NCBI GenBank assembly: GCA_963665275.2
Contig: CAXXIN010000014.1
Coordinates: forward strand, 64,001 to 128,000
Source: Negativicutes bacterium
Lineage (GTDB): Bacteria > Bacillota > Negativicutes > UBA1444
DNA: 64,000 nt
Reading direction: 5' to 3'
Translations under genes and position numbers: made by a program
Shown: one piece after another, positions 3 through 12,768 of the stretch
How positions within the stretch are numbered: the first letter of the stretch is position 1
How the letters are laid out: each line of letters begins with the position of its first letter
Notes under the pieces: model-generated
What the model saw: only the letters and a program-made list of their open reading frames with translations
Database searches by the model: none
Told to the model about the DNA's origin: nothing

Positions 3-1433
3 TTGGGCCTACTGTTTTTGAAATACATTTCCGACGCATTCGAAGAAAAATACGAAGAGTTGAACAAGGATGCACTGTCTGATCCAGAAGACCGAGACGA
101 ATATACGGCAGTAAATATTTTCTGGGTCGCCAAAGAAGCCCGCTGGAACTTTATCAAGGAAAGTGCAAAAAGCCCGAAAATCGGTCAGATCATCGATGAA
201 GCCATGGTGGCCATCGAGAAAGATAATTCCAATCTCAAAGGGGTACTGCCAAAAGATTATGCCCGGTCCACGCTGGACAAAACCCGGCTGGGTGAACTGA
301 TCGATATTCTTTCCTTCAATATAGGGGATAAGGAGAGCCGGTCGCAGGATATCTTGGGCCGAGTCTACGAATACTTCCTCTCCAAATTTGCAAGCGCCGA
401 AGGTAAAAACGGCGGTGAATTTTATACGCCGCAGTGCGTAGTAAAACTGCTGGTGGAAATGATCGAGCCGATGAAAGGGAGAATCTATGACCCCTGCTGC
501 GGATCAGGCGGCATGTTCGTGCAAAGCGAGCGCTTCCTGAGTGCGCATAGTGGCAAGCGCGGCGATATTTCGGTATACGGGCAGGAATCCAATCCCACGA
601 CCTGGCGGCTGTGCAAGATGAATCTGGCCATTCGAGGCATCGATGGCAAGCTCGGCGACTACAATGCCGATTCCTTCCATAATGACCTGCACAAAAGTCT
701 GAAGGCGGACTATATCCTGGCGAATCCCCCCTTCAACATCAGCGACTGGGGCGGCGCGAAACTGACCGAGGATGTCCGCTGGAGCGGCTACGGCATACCG
801 CCGGCCGGTAACGCAAACTACGCCTGGATTCTGCACATGCTCTGGCATTTGGCTCCCAGCGGCATTGCTGGATTTGTCCTGGCCAACGGTTCCATGTCGA
901 CGTCAACGACGAGTGAAGGTGAAATCCGAAAACAGTTGGTGGAAAAGGACAACGTCGACTGCATCGTGACCCTGCCGGGGCAGCTGTTCTATTCGACGCA
1001 GATTCCGGTATGTCTGTGGTTTGTGACCAAGAATAAGGCGGCGAAGGGACACCGCAGCCGCAATGGCGAAATCCTGTTCATCGACGCGCGGAAACTGGGC
1101 ACCATGGCGGACCGGACCCATAAGGAATTTTATGACGAGGATATTAAAAAGATTGCCGATACCTACCATTCCTGGCGCGGTGAAGAAGGGACCGGAGAGT
1201 ATGCGGATGTCAAAGGTTTCTGCAAAGCAGCGAAGCTGGAAGAAGTCCGGGAACACGAATATATCCTGACGCCGGGGCGATATGTGGGGATCGAAGACGT
1301 GGAGGAAGACGCCGAGCCGTTCGAGGAGAAGATGACGCGCCTGACGGGGGAATTGGCCGAGATGTTTGCCAAGTCGCGGCATTTGGAAGGCGAGATTCGG
1401 CAGCGGCTGGGGGCGATCGGGTATGAGTTCTGA
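3..1433 (+). CDS. hsdM: Type I restriction-modification methyltransferase subunit M (5' truncated by window)
   Basis: GEFYTP, motif [10 protein letters not shown], catalytic NPPF, C-terminal ILTPGRYVG. Confidence 0.97.
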
Positions 1434-1456: not shown

Positions 1457-2671
1457 GTGATTATGTTGAATGAAAAAAACACGGTGTGGAAAGACACGGT
1501 GCTTGGTATATTTATTTCCATTCAACGGGGTCATGATCTGCCAGAGCAAAACCGCAATAGTGGTGAAATTCCAATAATCGGATCCTTCGGAATTACTGGC
1601 TTTCATAATAAATCCATAGCTCAAGGTCCCGGAGTAACTATTGGTCGAAGTGGCGCGTCCATGGGTGTTGTGTCTTATTCCGACAAAAATTATTGGCCGC
1701 TAAATACCGTTTTATATGTCACAGATTTCCATGATAATGATCCTAAATTCGTTTATTACCGCTTAAAAACGATTGATTTTACAATATATAATTCTGGCAG
1801 TGCGCAACCATCATTAAATCGAAATTATATATATTCGGTTCCATTATGCATTCCAAATAAAAACGAGCAACGTGCCATCGCAGCCACCCTCTCCGCCCTC
1901 GACGACAAAATCGAAATCAACAACCGCATCAACAAAACCTTGGAAGAAATGGCCCAGGCCCTCTTCAAGCGATGGTTCGTCGATTTCGAGTTTCCGGACG
2001 AAAATGGCTTGCCGTACAAGTCCTCCGGCGGGGAGATGGAAGAGAGCGGACTGGGGCCGATTCCGAAGGGGTGGAAGGTTGAATCACTCGATAGTATCGC
2101 GGATTATTTAAATGGACTTGCTATGCAAAAATATCGACCTGAAGGCGAAGAGTTTTTACCTGTTATTAAGATTCGTGAACTCAATCAAGGGAAACCTGAT
2201 GGACAAAGCGATAAAGCCAGCCCCAATATTGATTCTAAGTACATTGTTAATGATGGTGATGTTTTATTTTCATGGTCGGGAAGCCTAGATGTGAAAATAT
2301 GGTGCGGAGGTAAAGGCGGTTTAAACCAACATTTGTTTAAAGTGACATCTGATCGATATGAAAAATGGTTTTACTATTTGTGGACCAAGCACCATCTTGA
2401 AAAATTTCGCGGAATTGCACAGGATAAAGCAACTACCATGGGACACATACAAAGAAAACACCTTAAAGAATCTTTGGTAGATGTTCCTGCGCAAGATGTT
2501 TTGGGGAAAATTAATTCGATAATGCGGCCGATTTTTGACCTTTATATCACAAGAGAAATTGAAGCAGCGACCTTGGTGGCAATAAGAGACACCCTATTAC
2601 CCAAACTTATCAGTGGCGAAATCCGTATGGATAGCTCATTTGCGGAGGACATCGGTAATGGAGAAAGTTAG
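1457..2671 (+). CDS. hsdS: Type I RM specificity subunit S
   Basis: Two low-GC TRDs separated by conserved EQRAIAATLSALDDKIEINNRINKTLEEMAQALFKRWFVDF; C-terminal RDTLLPKLISGEI. Confidence 0.95.
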   Translation: MIMLNEKNTVWKDTVLGIFISIQRGHDLPEQNRNSGEIPIIGSFGITGFHNKSIAQGPGVTIGRSGASMGVVSYSDKNYWPLNTVLYVTDFHDNDPKFVYYRLKTIDFTIYNSGSAQPSLNRNYIYSVPLCIPNKNEQRAIAATLSALDDKIEINNRINKTLEEMAQALFKRWFVDFEFPDENGLPYKSSGGEMEESGLGPIPKGWKVESLDSIADYLNGLAMQKYRPEGEEFLPVIKIRELNQGKPDGQSDKASPNIDSKYIVNDGDVLFSWSGSLDVKIWCGGKGGLNQHLFKVTSDRYEKWFYYLWTKHHLEKFRGIAQDKATTMGHIQRKHLKESLVDVPAQDVLGKINSIMRPIFDLYITREIEAATLVAIRDTLLPKLISGEIRMDSSFAEDIGNGES

Positions 2672-3935
2672 AATTGAATCAATTGGTGATTTCGTGGAAA
2701 TATTAAGCGGTCTCCGAACACTCTTGGCGGAAGAAGGCAACGACAAAATTGCTTTCTTCCGGGGGCAAAAAAATTCCGGCTGGGAAGAGATTTATCCGAG
2801 TGTCTTTCGCGCCCCATATTTGATGGCTGAAAATGAATTATATTACAATCTGTCGATGAAATGCCCAGAAGCAATACCAGCTAATTTTTCGATTATAGAT
2901 AAACTGGTGCTTATGCAGCATTATGGATTACCCACGCGACTTCTTGATGTTACAACCAATCCTTTAGTCGCTTTATTCTTCGCTTGCCAGAAAAACACCG
3001 AACGAGTACCAGCGTCTGAGAACTGTGAAATGAGTCATGAAGGCTGCTTTCGGGAAATCGAAACAGACGGAGAAATCCTTGTTTTACGTGATTATCGTCC
3101 TCAACAAACCGGATTTGAGAGAGCAAGCGTTATTGCTGCATTGGCAGAAATTAATTATCAGTTTACCCTGGGCGAGTTAAAAATGATCATAGATCGGCGA
3201 GGGTTAGGGACGTATTCAATATCAAGTTTGTCCGATATGTTGCAGCAAAGCTTGCCAATAAACACAAGAATGAATAACGAAAGAATTAAGAGACAATCAG
3301 GAGCGTTTATTATTTGCGGAACGCATCTGAATTTTGAAGATACTAACTCTGACGATTCTGTGGCGGTGAAGAAAGCAATTAATTTGCGGACCCGATTTGA
3401 ACAAGACGCTGGGGTACGCTACGTGGTTGCGTGGGATAAGAAAGAGCAAATATTGGAAGAGCTTGATTTCATAGGAATCAATGAATCCTTCCTTTATCCG
3501 GAAATAGAGTATCAGTCCAAGTATATTAGAGAGCATCAAATAAGGAATATCCAGTTTGATAGCGGGATCGATGGCGCTGAGCGAACGAAATTAGCAGAAG
3601 AGCTAGAAGAAGTGAATTTATATGTATCGCCTGAAAACCTTGAACGTTTTGCAGAAAGAGCGAAGATAGAAATACTTCTTATATTACAAGGCGTTGAGCA
3701 GAAAGAAATAATAACAGATTATATTGGCGAGATACTAAGAAACAACTTGGATGTGGATTGGATAAATAGAGAGGCCAGCAAGGCCAAAATTGCAGTAGCG
3801 ATTAAGCGCGTATTCAGGGAACACACAACGCTCGATTTTGTTCGAGTGAAAAAACTTATAGATGACATTCTTTTAATTGTTGAAGATTGCTATCATAAAT
3901 GCGCAGCTTCACAGGAGGTACCTGAAAATGTTTGA
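2658..3935 (+). CDS. FRG-domain protein with a C-terminal HsdR-like (DUF3387-like) helical domain
   Basis: FFRGQ, MQHYGLPTRLLDVTTNPLVALFFAC, NERIKRQSGAF and ELDFIGINESFLYPE motifs. C-terminal NNLDVDWINRE matches Hsd[15 protein letters not shown] 2658 overlaps the hsdS end. Confidence 0.85.
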   Translation: MEKVRIESIGDFVEILSGLRTLLAEEGNDKIAFFRGQKNSGWEEIYPSVFRAPYLMAENELYYNLSMKCPEAIPANFSIIDKLVLMQHYGLPTRLLDVTTNPLVALFFACQKNTERVPASENCEMSHEGCFREIETDGEILVLRDYRPQQTGFERASVIAALAEINYQFTLGELKMIIDRRGLGTYSISSLSDMLQQSLPINTRMNNERIKRQSGAFIICGTHLNFEDTNSDDSVAVKKAINLRTRFEQDAGVRYVVAWDKKEQILEELDFIGINESFLYPEIEYQSKYIREHQIRNIQFDSGIDGAERTKLAEELEEVNLYVSPENLERFAERAKIEILLILQGVEQKEIITDYIGEILRNNLDVDWINREASKAKIAVAIKRVFREHTTLDFVRVKKLIDDILLIVEDCYHKCAASQEVPENV

Positions 3936-4642
3936 AAAAATTGATCAGAACAAGGCTCGCATTGACGCGCTGCGTCCGATGCAGGGCAGCTTGCTCACAC
4001 AGATTCGAGACTATTACAAAATCGGCCTGACCTACTCCAGCAATGCGCTCGAAGGCAACTCCCTCACGGAAACGGAACCAAAGTTTTGTTGGAGGACGGC
4101 CTGACTGTCGGCGGCAAGCCGATCAGGGACTACTACGAGGCGACGGGTCACGCCAAGGCCTATGACTATATCTATACGCTCATGCAAGGCGAAGAACTGG
4201 GCGAAGTGCAGCTGAAAACCATCCACCGTCTGTTTTATTCCCTGATTGATGAAGCGCAGGCCGGGCAGTACCGCAAAGAAAGGGTCATTATCTCTGGGTC
4301 GAAGTATCCGGTGCCGCACCGGAGAAGGTCCAAGCACTCATGAACGGTTTTTTTCACTGGTTGTCTACGCAGGAAAAGCTGATGCATCCGGTGGAATTCG
4401 CCGCGAAGGCGCACAAGGAATTTGTCTTTATCCATCCTTTTGTGGACGGTAACGGCCGGGTGGCGCGGCTGCTGATGAATCTTTGCCTGTTGCGGCAGGG
4501 GTACACGATGGCGATCATTCCGCCGGTTCTGCGAGGCGACTACATCGCTCTGCTGGAAAAAGCGCATGAGGACGACACCGCCTTTGTGAACTTCATTGCC
4601 GAACGGGTGGAAGAAACGCAGAAGGATTTGCTGCGGCTTTAA
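3928..4642 (+). pseudogene. Class II Fic-family protein split by two apparent 1-bp deletions (~4077, ~4317); may be intact in vivo
   Basis: Three consecutive frames give YSSNALEGNSLT (inhibitory helix), LEDGLTVGGKP and HPFVDGNGRVARL (Fic motif). Adding one base at each junction restores a single ORF. Confidence 0.85.
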
Positions 4643-4693: not shown

Positions 4694-7600
4694 GTGACGG
4701 CGTATAATTTCAATGAATCCGAATTGGAGCAGGCGGTGCTGGAGTGCTTCCAGGAACTCTATTACGACATTCAGCAGGGACCGGAGATTTCACCGGGCGG
4801 TGCTTATCCGAACGGGACGACTACAACCTGGTGATTCTGCAAGACCGTCTCATGAATGCGCTCCGGCGAATCAATCCGAAAATGCCGACGGAAGCATTGG
4901 AGGACGCCTATCGCCAGGTCGTCATCGCCAAAAGCCCCAGCCTGATTGTGAATAATAAGGAGTTCTATCGCCTTATCACCGACGGAGTCAACGTAGAAGT
5001 CCGGCGGGCGGATGGATCCATCAAGACGGACAAGGTGTGGTTGTTCGATTTTTCGGATGAAGGAACGGACAATAACGATTGGCTGGCCGTCAACCAATAC
5101 ACCGTGATTGAAAATCATAACCATCGCCGGCCTGATGTGATCGTTTTCATCAATGGGATTCCGCTGGCGGTGATTGAATTGAAGAGCACCTCCGATGAAA
5201 ATGTGGGGGTTACCGAAGCCTTCCGGCAGTTTGAGACCTATAAAAACGAAATTCCCTCTCTGTTCATCTACAATTCATTTCTGGTGATCAGTGATGGCGT
5301 GAATGCAAAAGCGGGAACCCTGACCGCCAATGAAGATTGGTTCATGCCCTGGCGGACCATCGATGGCGTGGAGGTTGCCCCAACAGCGCTGCCGCAGCTG
5401 GAAGTGCTGATCAAGGGAATGTTTGATAAGCAACATTTCCTCGACATTATCAAGAACTTTATCCTGTTCCAGACCGACGGCAAGGAAATCTTCAAGATTC
5501 TGGCCGGCTACCATCAGTATCATGCGGTCAAGAAAGCAGTGACTTGCACCGAACGGGCCACCACGGAAGGCGGCGACCGGCGCATCGGTGTCATTTGGCA
5601 TACCCAGGGATCAGGCAAAAGCTATTCGATGGTGTTCTATGCCGGTCAACTGATCATGACCATGAACAACCCGACCATTATTGTGGTCACCGACCGGAAC
5701 GACCTCGACGAGCAGATCTACTCTACATTCAGCCGCTCCGAGGAATTTTTGCGCCAGTCTCCGGTCCAGGCCCTCAATCGGGCTGAGTTGCGGCAAATGC
5801 TCAAAGAGCGTCAGGCGGGCGGAATCATTTTTACTACCATCCAGAAATTCTCGCCGGGCGAGGATGGCGATACTGAACCGCTGCTGAATGACCGGCGCAA
5901 CATTGTGGTGATCGCTGACGAAGCCCATCGCTCCCAATACGGATTTGATGCTAAAGTGTCTGCCGGCGACCAGGGGGCGGCTGTGAAATACGGCTATGCC
6001 CGCTATCTGCGCGAGGCCATTCCCAATGCCTCGTTCATCGGATTCACCGGCACACCGGTGGAACTCACGGATAAGAACACTCCCGCCGTATTTGGCGATT
6101 ATATTGATATCTATGACATGACGCGGGCCGTGCAAGACGGTACTACCGTGAAAATCTTCTACGAAAGCCGCATTGCCAAGCTCGACCTGCCAGAATCAGA
6201 ACGTCCGAAGATTGACTCGGAGTTTGAAGAGATCACGGAATTTCAGGAAGAATCCTACAAAGAAAAGCAAAAAAGCAAATGGTCCCGTTTGGAGGCCATT
6301 GTCGGTGCAGAAAATCGTGTGCAAAAGATTGCCGAAGATATCGTCGAACACTATGAAAAAAGGCAGGCTGCTGCCTTTGGCAAAGCCATGGTGGTATCCA
6401 TGTCCAGGCGCATTGCGGTGGATCTGTACAACGCGATTGTTGCGCTGCGCCCCGAGTGGCACAGTGATAGCGATAATGAAGGCGTCATTAAAATTGTCAT
6501 GACCGGTTCTGCCTCCGATCCACAGGACTGGCAGAAGCACATCGGCCACAAAGCCCGCCGTAAACTGCTGGCGAAACGTATGAAAGATGAGAAGGACCCG
6601 CTAAAAATCGTCATCGTGCGGGATATGTGGCTAACTGGCTTTGACGTGCCGTCTATGTACACCATGTATGTTGACAAGCCGATGTCCGGACATAATCTGA
6701 TGCAGGCCATTGCCCGGGTCAATCGGGTGTTCAAGGATAAGCCGGGCGGCTTGGTCGTAGATTACATCGGCATCGCCGATAATCTGAAAAACGCCTTGTC
6801 GCAATACACCGTTTCCGACAGGGAGAATACCGGCGTGGATGTGGACCAGGCCGTAGACCTGATGAAAGAAAAATACTCACTGGTACGCGATTTGCTGCAT
6901 GGTTTCGACTACAGCAAGTTCAAGACCGGGACCGCATCAGAACGGATGAAGGCGATCGTGGCCTGCATCGATTTTGTGTTGGGACTGGGCGAAAACGGCA
7001 AGAAAGAATTCCTGAACTATGTCACGGAGTTGGCCAGGGCGTATGCGCTTTGCTCGACAACTGATGAAGCTGAGGAGCTGAATGTGGAGACTGGTTTCTT
7101 CAAGGCCGTAAAGGTGGGGATCATCAAACTGATTCCGGCCGGAGGGCCCAAGAAGACCAAAGCGCAGATCGAAGCACAGTTGAACCAGTTGATCGGCAAG
7201 TCGATCATTTCGGAAGAGGTCGTCGACATTCTCAGCGTTGTGGGCCTTGATAAACCCAATATCGGCATTTTATCCGATGAATTCCTGGAGGAAGTCCGGG
7301 GGTTGCCGCAAAAGAATCTGGCCGTAGAACTGCTGAGGCGGCTGATCGCCGGCAAGGTGAAGTCGGTCTCGCGCAGCAACCTGATCCAGTCGAAGAAGTT
7401 CTCGGAAATGCTGGAGAATGCGCTGAAAAAGTACCAGAACCGTTCCATCGAAACGACCCAGGTCATTATGGAACTGATCGAACTGGCCAAGCAAATGAAT
7501 GAGATGCAAAAACGGGGCGAGTCGGTCGGGCTGTCCTCGGATGAACTGGCTTTCTACGACGCGCTGGGGTCGAGTGATGCCGCCGTCATGATTATGGGCG

Positions 7601-7884
7601 ATGATATTTTGAAGCAGATTGCCCGCGATCTGACCACGACCATTAAAAACAACCTGGGCGTCGACTGGGCCATTCGTGAAACTGTGCGCGCCCAAATGCG
7701 CCTGACGGTGAAGAAGCTGCTCAAGAAATACGGCTATCCGCCGGACAAGCAGGAAGCTGCGGTGAAGACGGTCATGGAGCAGGCTGAGCTGATGTGCGGG
7801 AACGAATTGGAATATGAAACGGAATACCCGGAAAAGTCCCACCATGAATTTCCGCTGGCGGCGGACGGGAAAGGCGCGTGCTAA
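4694..7884 (+). CDS. hsdR: Type I RM restriction subunit R, with an apparent 1-bp deletion near 4810
   Basis: N-terminus [17 protein letters not shown]...GPEISPGG from GTG 4694 lies in another frame. Then [19 protein letters not shown], Walker [37 protein letters not shown]. Confidence 0.93.
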
Positions 7885-7932: not shown

Positions 7933-8931
7933 TTGGCAAGTAACGTAAACACAGCGTTTGCAGAGTTTTTGAAAAACACTGTGAATCTGGATGCAAATGA
8001 AACAAATACGGCGAGAAATAGTCGTGATTGGTTGGTTGGGAAGATACACGGTTTTGGGGGCAAGGACATGTTCCCTGTGCTTTACAATGAGAAGGATATT
8101 TTCTTTGGCTCTTTTGCTAGAAAAACAAAAATTCGCGAACTTGACGATATTGATATTATGATATGTTTGAGTGCTCTGGGGAGTACTTATAATCCCTATC
8201 AAGCTGGAAGTATTGAAATCACTGTGCCTGAATCGGCTGAAGCGCTGTATTGCCTATGCCACGATTACACTGACAAGTTGAATTCTAGAAAAGTAATAAA
8301 TAAAGTAATTTCAAAGCTAAGCAGTGTGCCGCAATATAAAAAAGCAGAAATAAGCAGGAACCAAGAGGCGGCTATACTAAATTTGCAGACCTATACTTGG
8401 AGTTTTGATATTATTCCTTGTTTTTTTACCTCCCCAGATCAATATTGCCGAACCTATTACTTGATTCCAGATGGTAGCGGCAATTGGCAGAAGACTGATC
8501 CGCGAATTGATAGTGATCATGTCTCGTCATTAAACCAGAAGCACAACGGTTATGCATTGAATTTAATAAGAATCGTCAAGTATTGGAATCGAAGACCAAC
8601 GATGCCATCGATGCAATCATATCTACTGGAATGTATGCTGCTGAATCATTTGGAAGGTTCGACCCAATGTTCGGATTATATTGACATTGCGTTTAGGGAT
8701 GCATTGGCTTACATATATTCTGCAATTTATAATAGCGTTCAAGATCCAAAAGGTATCCAGGGGGATCTCAACAATTTGCCAACTGAGGAAAGAAAAAAAA
8801 TATCCGATAGGGCGGCGATGGACTACAATAAGGCAATTGACGCAGGGACTTATGAAGGAAAAGGAGACCATAAATCGGCAATTAACAAGTGGAGGGAAAT
8901 TTTTGGCGATCAATTCCCGCCATATACATAA
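7933..8931 (+). CDS. SMODS/cGAS-DncV-like nucleotidyltransferase (CD-NTase) 1
   Basis: FFGSFARKTKIRELDDIDIM (hGS...DxD), third Asp in FDIIP, YLIPDGSGNWQKTDPR, LIRIVKYWN, SYLLE, terminal WREIFGDQFP; TTG start after GGGAGGG. Confidence 0.85.
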   Translation: MASNVNTAFAEFLKNTVNLDANETNTARNSRDWLVGKIHGFGGKDMFPVLYNEKDIFFGSFARKTKIRELDDIDIMICLSALGSTYNPYQAGSIEITVPESAEALYCLCHDYTDKLNSRKVINKVISKLSSVPQYKKAEISRNQEAAILNLQTYTWSFDIIPCFFTSPDQYCRTYYLIPDGSGNWQKTDPRIDSDHVSSLNQKHNGYALNLIRIVKYWNRRPTMPSMQSYLLECMLLNHLEGSTQCSDYIDIAFRDALAYIYSAIYNSVQDPKGIQGDLNNLPTEERKKISDRAAMDYNKAIDAGTYEGKGDHKSAINKWREIFGDQFPPYT

Positions 8932-8989
8932 GACTCATTTAAGAAAATATCTGCTCATAGCAACTGCTGATTTTTCAGGAGGGATATTC

Positions 8990-9856
8990 TTGGCGACAAC
9001 AATTGCCCAATCTTTTGTGGGATTTAAATCCAACCTTGAGATTACGGGGTTACAGGCAGAAACCATTTCAACGCGACAAAATAATGTTCGAGATGCTGTC
9101 AAAAGAGACTTTGATGTTTTGGACTCGTTTTTAACTGGATCATATGCCAGAAGCACAATGATAGCGCCGTTAAATCAAGCGGATGTCGATATATTTACAG
9201 TTTTGAAAACGGAACACTATCGATCAGACGGGCAAGCATACTTGCTGGATAAGGTGAAAAATACATTAATAAAAACATATCCGAAATCACCCAAAGTCAG
9301 CAGAAATGGACAAGCTGTTACAATTACATTCACTGATTTTACAGTTGATCTTATTCCTGCATTTTATAGGAAGGGCGGCGGCTATTTGATTCCCAATACA
9401 ATTACTAGCAGTTGGATTGCCACTGATCCCAAACAGCATATTTCAATCTCAAGTGAGCAAAATAAAAACCACAATGGAATGTTGATACCATTGGTGAAAA
9501 TGATCAAATGCTGGAATAAGAGCATGAATTATTGGTTTGGTTCATTTCATCTAGAGGTAATGGCTCAACAAATACTCAAAAAGGTTATAATCAGTGATTA
9601 TCCGTCCGGGGTTAGGTTCTTTTTCGATAAGGGCAGGGATACAGTTGGAAAGAAAACCCCTGATCCAGCTGGCTATAACGACGATGTGGGTTGCAACATT
9701 AATACAAAGGCGAAAATTGATGAAGCCGCTAGTAAATTTACGACTGCTTACACTCGGGCAAGCAAGGCGGAATCATTTGCGCGAGACGGGAATATACCAA
9801 GTGCGGTTGAAGAATGGAGAAAAATTTTCGGCAATCAATTTCCGGCATTTGGATAA
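8990..9856 (+). CDS. SMODS/CD-NTase 2
   Basis: LTGSYARSTMIAPLNQADVDIF, VDLIPAF, WIATDPKQH, LVKMIKCWN, SFHLE, terminal WRKIFGNQFP; TTG 8990 after CAGGAGG. Confidence 0.88.
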   Translation: MATTIAQSFVGFKSNLEITGLQAETISTRQNNVRDAVKRDFDVLDSFLTGSYARSTMIAPLNQADVDIFTVLKTEHYRSDGQAYLLDKVKNTLIKTYPKSPKVSRNGQAVTITFTDFTVDLIPAFYRKGGGYLIPNTITSSWIATDPKQHISISSEQNKNHNGMLIPLVKMIKCWNKSMNYWFGSFHLEVMAQQILKKVIISDYPSGVRFFFDKGRDTVGKKTPDPAGYNDDVGCNINTKAKIDEAASKFTTAYTRASKAESFARDGNIPSAVEEWRKIFGNQFPAFG

Positions 9857-9868
9857 GGGGGGGCTTGT

Positions 9869-10744
9869 ATGATAGGCGATCAAAATTCACCTGAAAATTT
9901 ACGACTTCTTGCGGCCCAGCGGCAGATATATATTGATGCAAAGTCATATGGAAAGTTTAGATTTTGGGGGTCGTTGGCATTTGCGGTGGTTGGGCCACTT
10001 GCTGCAGCGTATTGTGCTGGTGCTAGCATTTGGGTGCTGCTTTTGAGCAGTATTGCATGGCCCATTATGGTTGAAATATTTAAAGTAAGACAAAAAACTT
10101 TGACCTCACGAGCTGCTACCATACAGGAAGAGTTTGATGTGAATATGTTCGGGCTGCCATGGAATCATATTTTGGTTGGAAACAAAATAGCTAAGGAAAT
10201 TATAATTGAAGCGGATCGTCAATTTAGAGGTGATAAGAAAGACTTACAGAACTGGTATCCTGTTAGTTCACAAGAAAAAGGGCCTTTGGATATTCTTGTG
10301 AAGCAACGTACCAATTTGCTTTGGGATAGGCGATTGCGTATTAAGTACGCGAGGTTGTTAGGACTGGTAATTGCTTCAGTTTTTGTTGTTGAAGTTTGTA
10401 TCTGTATCTATCGAGAAATGAGATTATTAGACTGGCTTATTCAGTATTTTGCTCCATTGATGCCACTGATTTTACTTGGGATTGAAAATATTTTAACTCA
10501 TTATGAAATTGCAGGACAGAAGAAGCAGCTGGAAGACGTTATTATGTCAATTTATGAAAAAATTAATGATGGTTTAGTTGAAATATCCTTCGATAAAGAA
10601 TATCGACAAATTCAAGATGCCATATATTCAACGAGAAGACAAACTGTGTTGGTGCCGGAATTTTGGTCTAATAGGTTAAGTAATTCCTTTCAGAGCAACA
10701 TGATAGAAGCCGCGCGTGAGTATCAAAATCTGAAATTAAAGTAA
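9869..10744 (+). CDS. S-4TM family putative pore-forming CBASS effector
   Basis: Two pairs of hydrophobic helices; LLAAQRQIY..AK, IQEEFDVNMFGLPWN, LQNWY, QRTNLLWDRRLR, RQIQDAIY..RR motifs; directly follows the CD-NTases. Confidence 0.82.
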   Translation: MIGDQNSPENLRLLAAQRQIYIDAKSYGKFRFWGSLAFAVVGPLAAAYCAGASIWVLLLSSIAWPIMVEIFKVRQKTLTSRAATIQEEFDVNMFGLPWNHILVGNKIAKEIIIEADRQFRGDKKDLQNWYPVSSQEKGPLDILVKQRTNLLWDRRLRIKYARLLGLVIASVFVVEVCICIYREMRLLDWLIQYFAPLMPLILLGIENILTHYEIAGQKKQLEDVIMSIYEKINDGLVEISFDKEYRQIQDAIYSTRRQTVLVPEFWSNRLSNSFQSNMIEAAREYQNLKLK

Positions 10745-10919: not shown

Positions 10920-11070
10920 CTGTAGATCCGTCCTCGCCTCGATTTGAGCGCGGACTTCGCTATGGCCGCCGGCGGCGCTAAATATATTCGTAACGCTATT
11001 GCGCGAAAAAAGGAAATGGGCCGCTCAAGCAGAAACAAATATTGATCGAAGAAAAAGCATGGAGGGACAA

Positions 11071-12768
11071 ATGGAAGTAGCCATGTTGCAAAACATGATC
11101 TCCGCCGGTGAACAGTTGTCGGTTGAGTTTAAATCAGACCGTAGCGGTTCCCGGGGTGAGCATATGCTGGGAGAAGAAACGATCTTGAGCGAAGCGGTGG
11201 CGTTGGCCAACTCCGGTGGCGGCTATTTGCTCATTGGGGTGGAAGATGATGGCAAGGTAACCGGCTTGAATTCTCAGCGCAGTGACCAGCGTCCGGAAGC
11301 CTTGCAGGCATTCATTTTTAATAAAACGCAGCCACCGATTTCGACTGAAACCGAAGTCGTTTCCCATGCGGATGGGAGTGTGATGGTGGTTCGGGTGCTT
11401 TCGATGCATGGCGTGGTTTATGCTACAATGTCTGGCAAAATGCTGCGCCGCGAAATGACTGCGCAAGGACCGGAGACTCGGATAATGTACCCTTATCAGG
11501 TGATCAGCCTGCTTTCACAACAACGGCAGATCGATTACTCGGAACAGATCCTGCATGATTTGGACTGGACGGCACTCGATCCGCTGGAACTCGAACGGGC
11601 GAAGCAAATGGTGGAACGAAATGCGGGTCGCAGCGATGCTTCGCTGGTGGGGCTGGATGCGGTTGAATTGGCCAAGGCGCTGGGGCTGGTTGTGACGGAT
11701 GGCAGCGTTTTGCGTCCCACCATTGCAGGACTACTGGTTGCAGGGCGGGAGGCGGTCTTGCGCCGGTACTTGCCAATGCATCACGTGCTTTTTCAGCGGA
11801 TCGATGAACGGGATGAAGTGCGGATAAACGATTCCTTCCGACAGGCGCTTCTCTCGACCCTGGACGCGGTTGAACAGCGGTTTGCCGCTCAAAATCAGGA
11901 ACAAGAGGTCATGGTGGGCTTGTTTCGACTGTCAATTCCTGATTATTCACAGATGGGCTTTCGTGAGGCCTTGCTGAACGCGATAGTTCATCGTGATTAT
12001 GCGGTCCGGGGCGAAGTTTTTATCCAGTGGCGACCGGATCATTTATTGATTACGAATCCGGGTGGCTTCATGCCAGGAATTACTTTGGAAAACCTTATAT
12101 ACCATGAGCCGTTGTCGCGCAACCCTTTGTTGGTCGATATTTTCAAGCGACTGGGACTGGTGGAACGGACGGCTCGGGGAGTGGATCGGATTTTTCAGGG
12201 TCAATTGCGGTTTGGGAGACCGGCGCCAGACTATTCGCGTTCGGATGCTTCCGGTGTGCGGGTGCTGTTGCCTGGCGGCAGGCCTTCGCTGGAGTTTGCC
12301 CGACTGGTGTATCAGGAAGAAAAAGCAATGGGAAAAACACTGCCGCTGGACCAGCTGATGGCATTAAACCACTTGTTTTTCTGCCGACGCACAGATGCAG
12401 AAACCTTGGCTAAGGCGATCCATCGAGATGTGAACGCGGCGCGGGCTTTGCTGGAGAATTTGGTGGAACAAGGCTGGGTGGAAGCTTCCGGCAATAAAAA
12501 AGGCCGCACTTATCACTTCGCAGCCAAAGTCTATGCTGCGGAGGGTAATCCGGCGGGATACGTGCGGGCGGCCGGGCTGGATCCTGAGGAACAGGAACAA
12601 CGGGTACGAAAATTTGTTAAGGCGCATGGGAGAATAGAGAGGAAGAACGTGATGGATCTTTGCAAGGTGGATGCGTCGGATGCTTTCCGAATTCTTCAAC
12701 GGCTTGTTAGCGCTGGCGAAATCGTCTTGGTAGGCAAAGGACGCAGTGCCTACTATCGAAAAAAATAG
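11071..12768 (+). CDS. Schlafen/AlbA_2 domain + RecG-C/HATPase_c_4-like domain + C-terminal wHTH protein
   Basis: VEFKS, AVALANSGGGYLLIGVEDDG, REALLNAIVHRDY, ITNPGG, RNPLL..IFKRLGLVERTARGV, terminal GKGRSAYY; GGAGG before ATG 11071. Confidence 0.85.
   Translation: MEVAMLQNMISAGEQLSVEFKSDRSGSRGEHMLGEETILSEAVALANSGGGYLLIGVEDDGKVTGLNSQRSDQRPEALQAFIFNKTQPPISTETEVVSHADGSVMVVRVLSMHGVVYATMSGKMLRREMTAQGPETRIMYPYQVISLLSQQRQIDYSEQILHDLDWTALDPLELERAKQMVERNAGRSDASLVGLDAVELAKALGLVVTDGSVLRPTIAGLLVAGREAVLRRYLPMHHVLFQRIDERDEVRINDSFRQALLSTLDAVEQRFAAQNQEQEVMVGLFRLSIPDYSQMGFREALLNAIVHRDYAVRGEVFIQWRPDHLLITNPGGFMPGITLENLIYHEPLSRNPLLVDIFKRLGLVERTARGVDRIFQGQLRFGRPAPDYSRSDASGVRVLLPGGRPSLEFARLVYQEEKAMGKTLPLDQLMALNHLFFCRRTDAETLAKAIHRDVNAARALLENLVEQGWVEASGNKKGRTYHFAAKVYAAEGNPAGYVRAAGLDPEEQEQRVRKFVKAHGRIERKNVMDLCKVDASDAFRILQRLVSAGEIVLVGKGRSAYYRKK

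Follow-up and report, generated by a model that had tools for sequence, protein, structure and literature searches.

In this article I discuss a gene for an FRG-domain protein that lies within a type I restriction-modification (R-M) operon of a Negativicutes bacterium (assembly GCA_963665275.2) and whose C-terminal end is homologous to that of the restriction subunit HsdR encoded beside it. The window, meaning the whole analysed stretch of 64,000 nucleotides (contig CAXXIN010000014.1, positions 64,001 to 128,000), opens within hsdM, whose 3' part (3..1433, forward strand like the rest of the operon; Pfam N6_Mtase and HsdM_N) belongs to a gene for 512 aa that begins slightly upstream of the window (L161:9895). 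There follow hsdS (1457..2671; 404 aa, two Pfam Methylase_S domains), the FRG gene (2658-3935; an open reading frame (ORF) of 425 aa), fic (3928..4642, in three frames in the assembly) and hsdR (4694..7884, with its start near 4694), whose product matches Pfam HSDR_N, SWI2_SNF2 and, at residues 692-1018, PF11867. The FRG gene sits between hsdS and fic and overlaps both, just as the original prediction, made from these letters alone, had described: by 14 nt with hsdS, which ends at 2671, and by 8 nt with fic, whose ATG is at 3928. One assembly frameshift lies in hsdR near 4807, its N-terminus being recovered in two frames by tblastn, and contigs of three public sequencing runs, which represent no more than two samples and may include the source of this DNA, carry one extra base after each of positions 4075, 4316, 4637 and 4807; the breaks in fic and in the 5' part of hsdR are therefore most likely assembly errors in an operon that is most likely intact, and the idea of a decayed operon was rejected on these grounds. 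Other apparent pseudogenes in the same genome may likewise be artefacts of single-base omissions.

Three parts can be told apart in the FRG protein: a core (residues 1-296, 2658..3545), a probably flexible linker (residues 299-317, 3552..3608) with pLDDT under 50 and about 21% mean pairwise identity in its alignment columns, and a tail of four helices (residues 325-417, 3630..3908) that reads as the captured end of the HsdR domain known as T1RH-like_C or DUF3387 (PF11867). A 29-residue segment of this tail (359-387, nt 3732-3818) aligns without gaps, with 10/29 residues identical, to nt 7639-7725 in the C-terminal domain of this operon's own hsdR, the putative donor; the original prediction, which had spotted this alignment, took the segment to end the protein, and it does lie near the C-terminus, with 38 residues beyond it. 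Over 105 columns the tail matches its own HsdR at E 1e-4 in pairwise BLASTP, and the homology that had been proposed is upheld when 23 tails are compared as a profile with 32 HsdR C-termini (hhalign 97%, E 1.1e-10, 53 columns). Furthermore, a hidden Markov model (HMM) built from FRG tails alone and run against 5166 ORFs from 161 loci matches nothing at E<0.1 but FRG tails and HsdR C-termini; together with the hhalign match, this led to the rejection of chance similarity.

The homology extends to the last ~55-90 residues of the PF11867 family, although what the FRG proteins carry is the terminal helical subdomain only, diverged, less basic and below the Pfam cut-off: PF11867 scores 21.4 bits on the tail (residues 352-389) and 24.3 bits on the last 111 aa, short of the curated 26.8, and covers positions 268-306 only of a 329-position model. 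Within it D367 and W368 are invariant, D and W being present in 23/23 tails and 32/32 HsdR proteins; by pattern, a DW-containing extension occurs in 75 of the best 120 homologues, and PF11867 in the precomputed annotation of 4 of the best 120. A language-model search with the tail of a relative ranks PF11867-bearing clusters first (0.91 and 0.90), the family being annotated on 12-26% of the members of these top two. Fold comparison is less specific, since in the full model the tail matches only generic helical bundles (best Z 9.3), Foldseek gives it no match at E 0.001, and no solved structure matches the HsdR C-terminal alignment by sequence. As a separate observation, the closest relatives P0003 and P0004 are mosaics when set against P0001: identity is 82-100% in residues 1-150, falls to 56-70% in 151-300 and to 18-48% in the linker and tail, which suggests recombination that exchanges the back half.

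A second, unrelated tail tells the same story in another R-M family. The FRG proteins of Vibrio aestuarianus (L059) and Agarivorans (L031) are encoded in the hsdS-hsdR slot of another type I family, in which HsdR is without PF11867, and carry extensions of ~95 residues that match the end of their own HsdR; this second tail is found on 52 of the 120 listed relatives of the Vibrio protein. Its HMM matches, among the 5166 ORFs, only the two FRGs and four HsdR C-termini of the same family (E 1e-19 to 1e-27) and no HsdR of the PF11867 type. Compared as profiles, the two tail types show no similarity (probability 0.2% and 0.7%). A survey of 401 genomes from the order of the Vibrio isolate gave 27 second-tail matches, namely 2 FRGs in their operons and 25 HsdR proteins or pieces. 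When FRG cores are placed in a tree with tails removed (a quick tree of 70 rows), the second-tail proteins group among untailed neighbours from their own R-M family with support 100, and a branch of support 98 separates them from the first-tail proteins. A single origin of both tails in one FRG clade was rejected by the approximately unbiased test (p 7e-7), run on a quick tree of 48 of the 70 cores, the 22 omitted being mostly rows without R-M plus two long branches, and three split or cut rows having been left out of both tree and test. Judged from sequence, these are two independent captures of unrelated HsdR C-terminal domains, each matching its own system. The window's FRG sits on a long branch, apart from the main group of first-tail proteins, and may represent one more capture, its placement in the tree being unsure; similarly, the PADLOC model PDLC04934, with an FRG front and a last ~140 positions that match HsdR C-termini, describes a more distant FRG subfamily that is likely a third capture lineage, of which no full-length member was found in 401 genomes.

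The linkage between the tail and its partner system is equally close. Using FRG core motifs, and blind to tail and neighbours, 160 loci were picked, which together with the window form 73 clusters at 70% identity; the HMMs used to call R-M genes took this operon as their seed, and divergent genes may be missed. Tailed FRGs, for which the original prediction had raised confinement to type I R-M operons, are indeed confined to them, all 25 of 25 clusters lying upstream of an hsdR with the same C-terminal domain. At the level of single loci hsdR is downstream in 78/82, within 60 nt in 73 of these 78, and the remaining 4 loci end within 214 nt of a contig end. The other 48 clusters divide into 2 with the second tail and 46 untailed, and the latter into 14 in R-M loci, 23 with no R-M gene in their flanks and 9 whose flanks are too short, so that embedding between hsdS and hsdR and near-confinement to type I R-M hold for the tailed form and not for FRG as a whole. 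Untailed FRGs without R-M genes occur in prophages, plasmids and chromosomes, and one such clade (L019, L038, L042, L078, L158) has proteins of 430-460 aa with an N-terminal extension of 130-180 residues and no R-M neighbours. On 80 viral contigs R-M genes accompany only 5 FRGs, exactly the 5 that are tailed (4 called by HMM, 1 by eye).

Genome-wide surveys agree. Among 401 genomes of the window's phylum, the tail gave 66 matches, of which one is the window's own tail, 39 are frames of >1000 aa taken as HsdR by length, and 26 are shorter, namely 23 HsdR pieces, two in which nothing was found at the thresholds used and one weak lone hit; the 400 other genomes yielded no further tailed FRG, and the tailed form is rare. 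Both 401-genome surveys, in the phylum and in the Vibrio order, thus speak against a tail that is common outside R-M loci, having returned only HsdR, HsdR pieces and FRGs, barring three weak or ambiguous hits in the phylum. The idea that many types of effector use the tail found little support: of the best 150 of 642 tail matches, 76 are FRG-linked, 13 are strong HsdR pieces and most of the rest, judged by eye, are short fragments. Only one other full architecture appears among these 150, the non-FRG protein P0368 (466 aa), which ends in an HsdR-type tail (PF11867, 26.3 bits), has no locus and no relatives that could be found, and is so tryptophan-rich as to hint at another genetic code. P0309 (625 aa) joins an HsdS recognition domain, FRG and tail, either as a real fusion or through a chimeric contig. 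Phage records searched with the FRG tail gave no match, and five unannotated records matched the HsdR end; all 84 ORFs with this HsdR domain in the viral-contig loci are HsdR or pieces of it. Two leads stand apart from these counts: a cluster of ~94-aa proteins, 40% viral, that resembles the tail by language-model features (0.90) and could be followed up for phage mimics of the docking domain, and three ORFs of 193-371 aa that hold the C-terminal region of HsdR and lie close to hsdM or follow an HsdR-like gene (L208:5627-6658, L210:4759-5871, L211:4340-4918), which are split genes or stand-alone DUF3387 proteins.

Where would such a tail bind? The C-terminal regions of HsdR are believed to touch the core of the methyltransferase (PMC2777439), and the tethering to the methyltransferase that had been proposed for the FRG protein is supported as a structure prediction: HsdM modelled with the tail gives ipSAE 0.73, 0.73 and 0.74 against 0.01 for the best of three controls, the runs agreeing in 100% of contacts with a partner pLDDT of at least 84. 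The model comprised HsdM (24-row alignment) and tail (23 rows) only, with alignments that I made myself, for which the mark reached by 116/157 solved complexes and 2/215 mismatched pairs is a rough guide. In the predicted interface the helix after DW (365-388) lies on HsdM residues 61-74, an acidic segment with EDRDEY, plus 113, 194-196, 221-226 and 250-252. Now considering that the predicted contact positions in the tails keep the pattern of HsdR, with K/R at 371 in 22/23 tails and 32/32 HsdR, a small residue at 376 in 22/23 tails where 32/32 HsdR have Ala, and K/R at 379 in 15/23 tails and 32/32 HsdR, I count this conservation in favour of docking. The charges are complementary too: the helix is basic in 23/23 tails and 31/32 HsdRs, with a net charge of +1 to +8 (mostly +2 to +5) in tails versus +5 to +9 in HsdR, and the HsdM segment is acidic in 24/24, weakest in L058 (-1 versus -4 to -8); the only non-basic HsdR helix (L159, net -2) belongs to the same HsdR type as that of L058, a single case. 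From model and charges together, it is probable, and I hold this with good confidence, that the basic DW helix of the tail binds the acidic N-terminal segment of HsdM.

A sceptic could answer that the tail arose by local duplication of the adjacent hsdR end and serves as a generic DNA-binding or solubility domain, its linkage to R-M being an inherited position. Untailed FRG genes that already adjoin hsdR would give the chance for such a fusion, the helix is basic, contact with DNA has been proposed for the C-terminal regions of HsdR (PMC2777439), and the dN/dS of the tail (0.23) is like that of the linker (0.27) over nine pairs in which the core stands at 0.09, values by which the tail is under purifying selection. 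I nevertheless regard this passenger role as improbable, since two unrelated domains, each from the extreme C-terminus, were captured, kept over deep divergence and not found off their matching systems, and the HsdM-tail complex passes its controls. Equally improbable to my mind is an integrated decoy, with the tail as bait for phage proteins that target the HsdR C-terminal domain and switch the enzyme on through it, HsdM binding being incidental. It would explain why tails diverge far faster than HsdR C-termini (29% versus 70% mean column identity) while resembling their cognate HsdR above others (mean relative rank 0.31, nominal p 0.004, with kin not independent), yet the positions that tails keep are the predicted HsdM-facing ones, and a bait need not sit only beside a matching HsdM. 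I also know of no phage protein that binds the HsdR C-terminal domain, which counts against a decoy.

A regulator of restriction would make different use of the same surface, the tail competing with HsdR, or the enzyme modifying a subunit, so as to damp restriction and spare the host, for instance when the operon first arrives or when hsdS has switched. The tail is predicted on the HsdM surface that the homologous helix of HsdR would use, and many tailed loci (L020, L022, L033, L093, L102 and others) contain several hsdS copies in both orientations, a phase-variable-like arrangement; in addition, a stand-alone DUF3387 gene in Synechococcus aided, rather than hindered, a phage (PMC5490813). I consider this quite unlikely all the same, as free-standing FRGs in prophages and plasmids without R-M fit a defence effector better, and a competitor would not need an enzyme core conserved as strongly as this one.

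That core was described in the original prediction as an FRG domain of unknown function, which holds only in part: published work counts Frg among the domains of the ADP-ribosyltransferase (ART) superfamily and regards it as a potential antiviral effector and perhaps an NADase (PMC9503650), and the protein is catalogued in PADLOC as PDC-S15. Pfam FRG (PF08867) matches residues 32-115 with 65.6 bits against a cut-off of 25, the PDC-S15 model PDLC04927 (422 positions) matches residues 3-412 at E 2.5e-74, and thirteen core residues (R35, G36, R51, E58, Q87, H88, Y89, T93, R94, D97, N101, R209 and Q213) are invariant in 70 sequences. Modelled alone (pLDDT 91.6, pTM 0.90), the core shows a weakly ART-like fold with a winged-helix-like insert at about 145-245, a span that winged-helix domains match in the fold search. 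The best fold match is a weak one (8s2m_B, Z 5.5, rmsd 3.2, 106 aligned), a search of solved chains with the FRG alignment gave no match in sequence, and Foldseek finds nothing for the core at E 0.001. ART-fold proteins, classed by my own reading, account for 18/50 rows of that search over residues ~25-290, all with Z under 8. These weak matches agree with the published placement of Frg, one of the RES/Frg clades, in the superfamily. The invariant R35 closes the first core strand of the model and may act in NAD+ cleavage or transfer; the protein is likely an FRG-family anti-phage effector that consumes NAD+.

The nature of the core is also what invites the thought of an alternative R subunit, by which the tail would carry the FRG enzyme on M2S to unmethylated phage sites, where target recognition would be the trigger and the enzyme would ADP-ribosylate DNA or protein, or burn NAD+ locally. 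This possibility, unlikely although the strongest of the rivals, shares the docking evidence (tail homology, second tail and HsdM complex model), and gains from the winged-helix-like insert, which suggests nucleic-acid contact, and from the weak fold matches, which include ARTs that modify nucleic acids, for instance Scabin. It is at odds with untailed relatives that have the same insert and no R-M genes, and with HsdR, which by eye keeps its D...ELK nuclease motif in the 78 loci inspected, so that a second cutter-like arm would compete with it.

Three known systems help to frame the reading I prefer, in which the FRG effector guards the restriction complex. PDC-S15 is closest by sequence, as both the window's FRG and the second lineage match its models (PDLC04930 at E 1e-218 for the latter). 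The PDCs, which are candidates for phage defence, were found by their embedding in BREX, DISARM and type I R-M operons (10.1101/2024.01.29.577857), and the main text of that report by Payne et al. mentions neither PDC-S15, FRG nor HsdR, so that a captured HsdR domain or a mechanism is absent from the main-text account. PrrC is an ABC-ATPase/ribonuclease. In EcoprrI its gene lies between hsdS and hsdR, and the R-M complex holds the protein, which becomes active once T4 Stp inhibits that complex (PMC12707154). The tailed FRG gene occupies the same slot and, by analogy, its product most likely works like PrrC without belonging to the PrrC family: it is without ABC-ATPase and anticodon nuclease domains, Pfam finding only FRG and PF11867, it would be linked to the complex through a stretch captured from HsdR, and its effector part is weakly ART-like. 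In Ronin, HsdMS keeps the toxic RonA suppressed, and ArdA, Aop1 or Ocr triggers it (10.1101/2023.04.06.535777); as described there, Ronin is without hsdR and RonA is a membrane protein of 61 aa, whereas the tailed FRG loci have hsdR with its nuclease motif and a soluble enzyme-like protein of 425 aa. A Ronin-like decoy complex with a dead or missing HsdR was rejected on that account.

Combining these strands, it is slightly favoured that FRG enzymes repeatedly captured the docking domain of their own HsdR, occupy an HsdR site on the methylase and make the complex a sensor or targeting platform for an NAD+-consuming effector; the more specific claim, that an FRG effector with a copy of the HsdR C-terminus docks on the HsdR-binding patch of HsdM and guards the restriction complex, I hold tentatively, at close to an even chance. 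In such a mechanism the M2S core would offer two HsdR sites, and the tail, less basic than the helix of HsdR, would hold one weakly or in part. A phage anti-restriction protein would then alter the occupancy or shape of the site, by displacing HsdR or binding as a DNA mimic, and this change would start the cleavage of NAD+ or ADP-ribosylation, halting the infected cell as PrrC and RonA do through other mechanisms. Given docking, such activation by anti-restriction seems a reasonably good bet, with the trigger as the weak step of the mechanism. Untailed FRGs in the same slot and far from R-M argue that simple caging cannot control the whole family, and their presence in prophages, plasmids and chromosomes without R-M makes it more likely that the tail adds a new input or location.

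Several points weigh against guarding. The 14 untailed clusters in R-M loci and the 23 without an R-M gene show FRGs managing without the tail, and since untailed FRGs persist where R-M genes are absent, the core needs no cage and must have its own trigger. The slot between hsdS and hsdR is a general cargo site (10.1101/2024.01.29.577857). The ART-like resemblance is weak (Z 5.5 or less, with Foldseek empty at its threshold), the tail stands close to the linker in dN/dS, and among 32 HsdRs the cognate one comes only at rank 13.5 for the tail of the window. As to the complex model, none of its controls used an HsdM of another family, the alignments were of my own making, and it may echo solved EcoR124I complexes; the EcoR124I C-terminal domain itself has no sequence match to the tail domain.

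The surroundings of the operon complete the picture. Directly 3' of hsdR, Pfam and PADLOC identify two tandem SMODS nucleotidyltransferases with an S-4TM effector in a CBASS-like arrangement (7933-10744), and the island ends, by Pfam, with a protein of AlbA_2, RecG-C-like ATPase and HTH parts (10999-12768). Just upstream of the window a 549-aa gene abuts hsdM (L161:8244-9893; G000:C14:62244-63893), consisting of a degenerate N6-methyltransferase part and one HsdS-type recognition domain, with no close counterpart in the other loci.

I found no published account of an effector that carries an HsdR docking domain, in a search that stopped short of two Aravind-group papers, the EcoR124I papers and preprint supplements. 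On the sequence comparisons and the model, the tail capture is real, convergent and tightly linked to its partner system, and the docking model is supported. This matters since little is understood of how PrrC and other accessory proteins are physically joined to type I R-M enzymes, and here the coupling would be readable in the sequence itself, the effector bearing its system's own docking domain, taken from two unrelated HsdR families. The result is a residue-level model of a guard or alternative effector arm, which assigns a likely job to DUF3387/PF11867 and to the second HsdR C-terminal domain, which has no name, places the predicted binding patch for HsdR on HsdM in a large family of which I found no solved holoenzyme, and suggests a condition under which FRG/PDC-S15 candidates should show activity. 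It also provides a search rule for more guards and phage inhibitors, namely an HsdR tail on a protein that is not HsdR, and, if the reading is true, host guards and phage inhibitors alike would make use of the HsdR C-terminal domain as a portable plug specific to its family.

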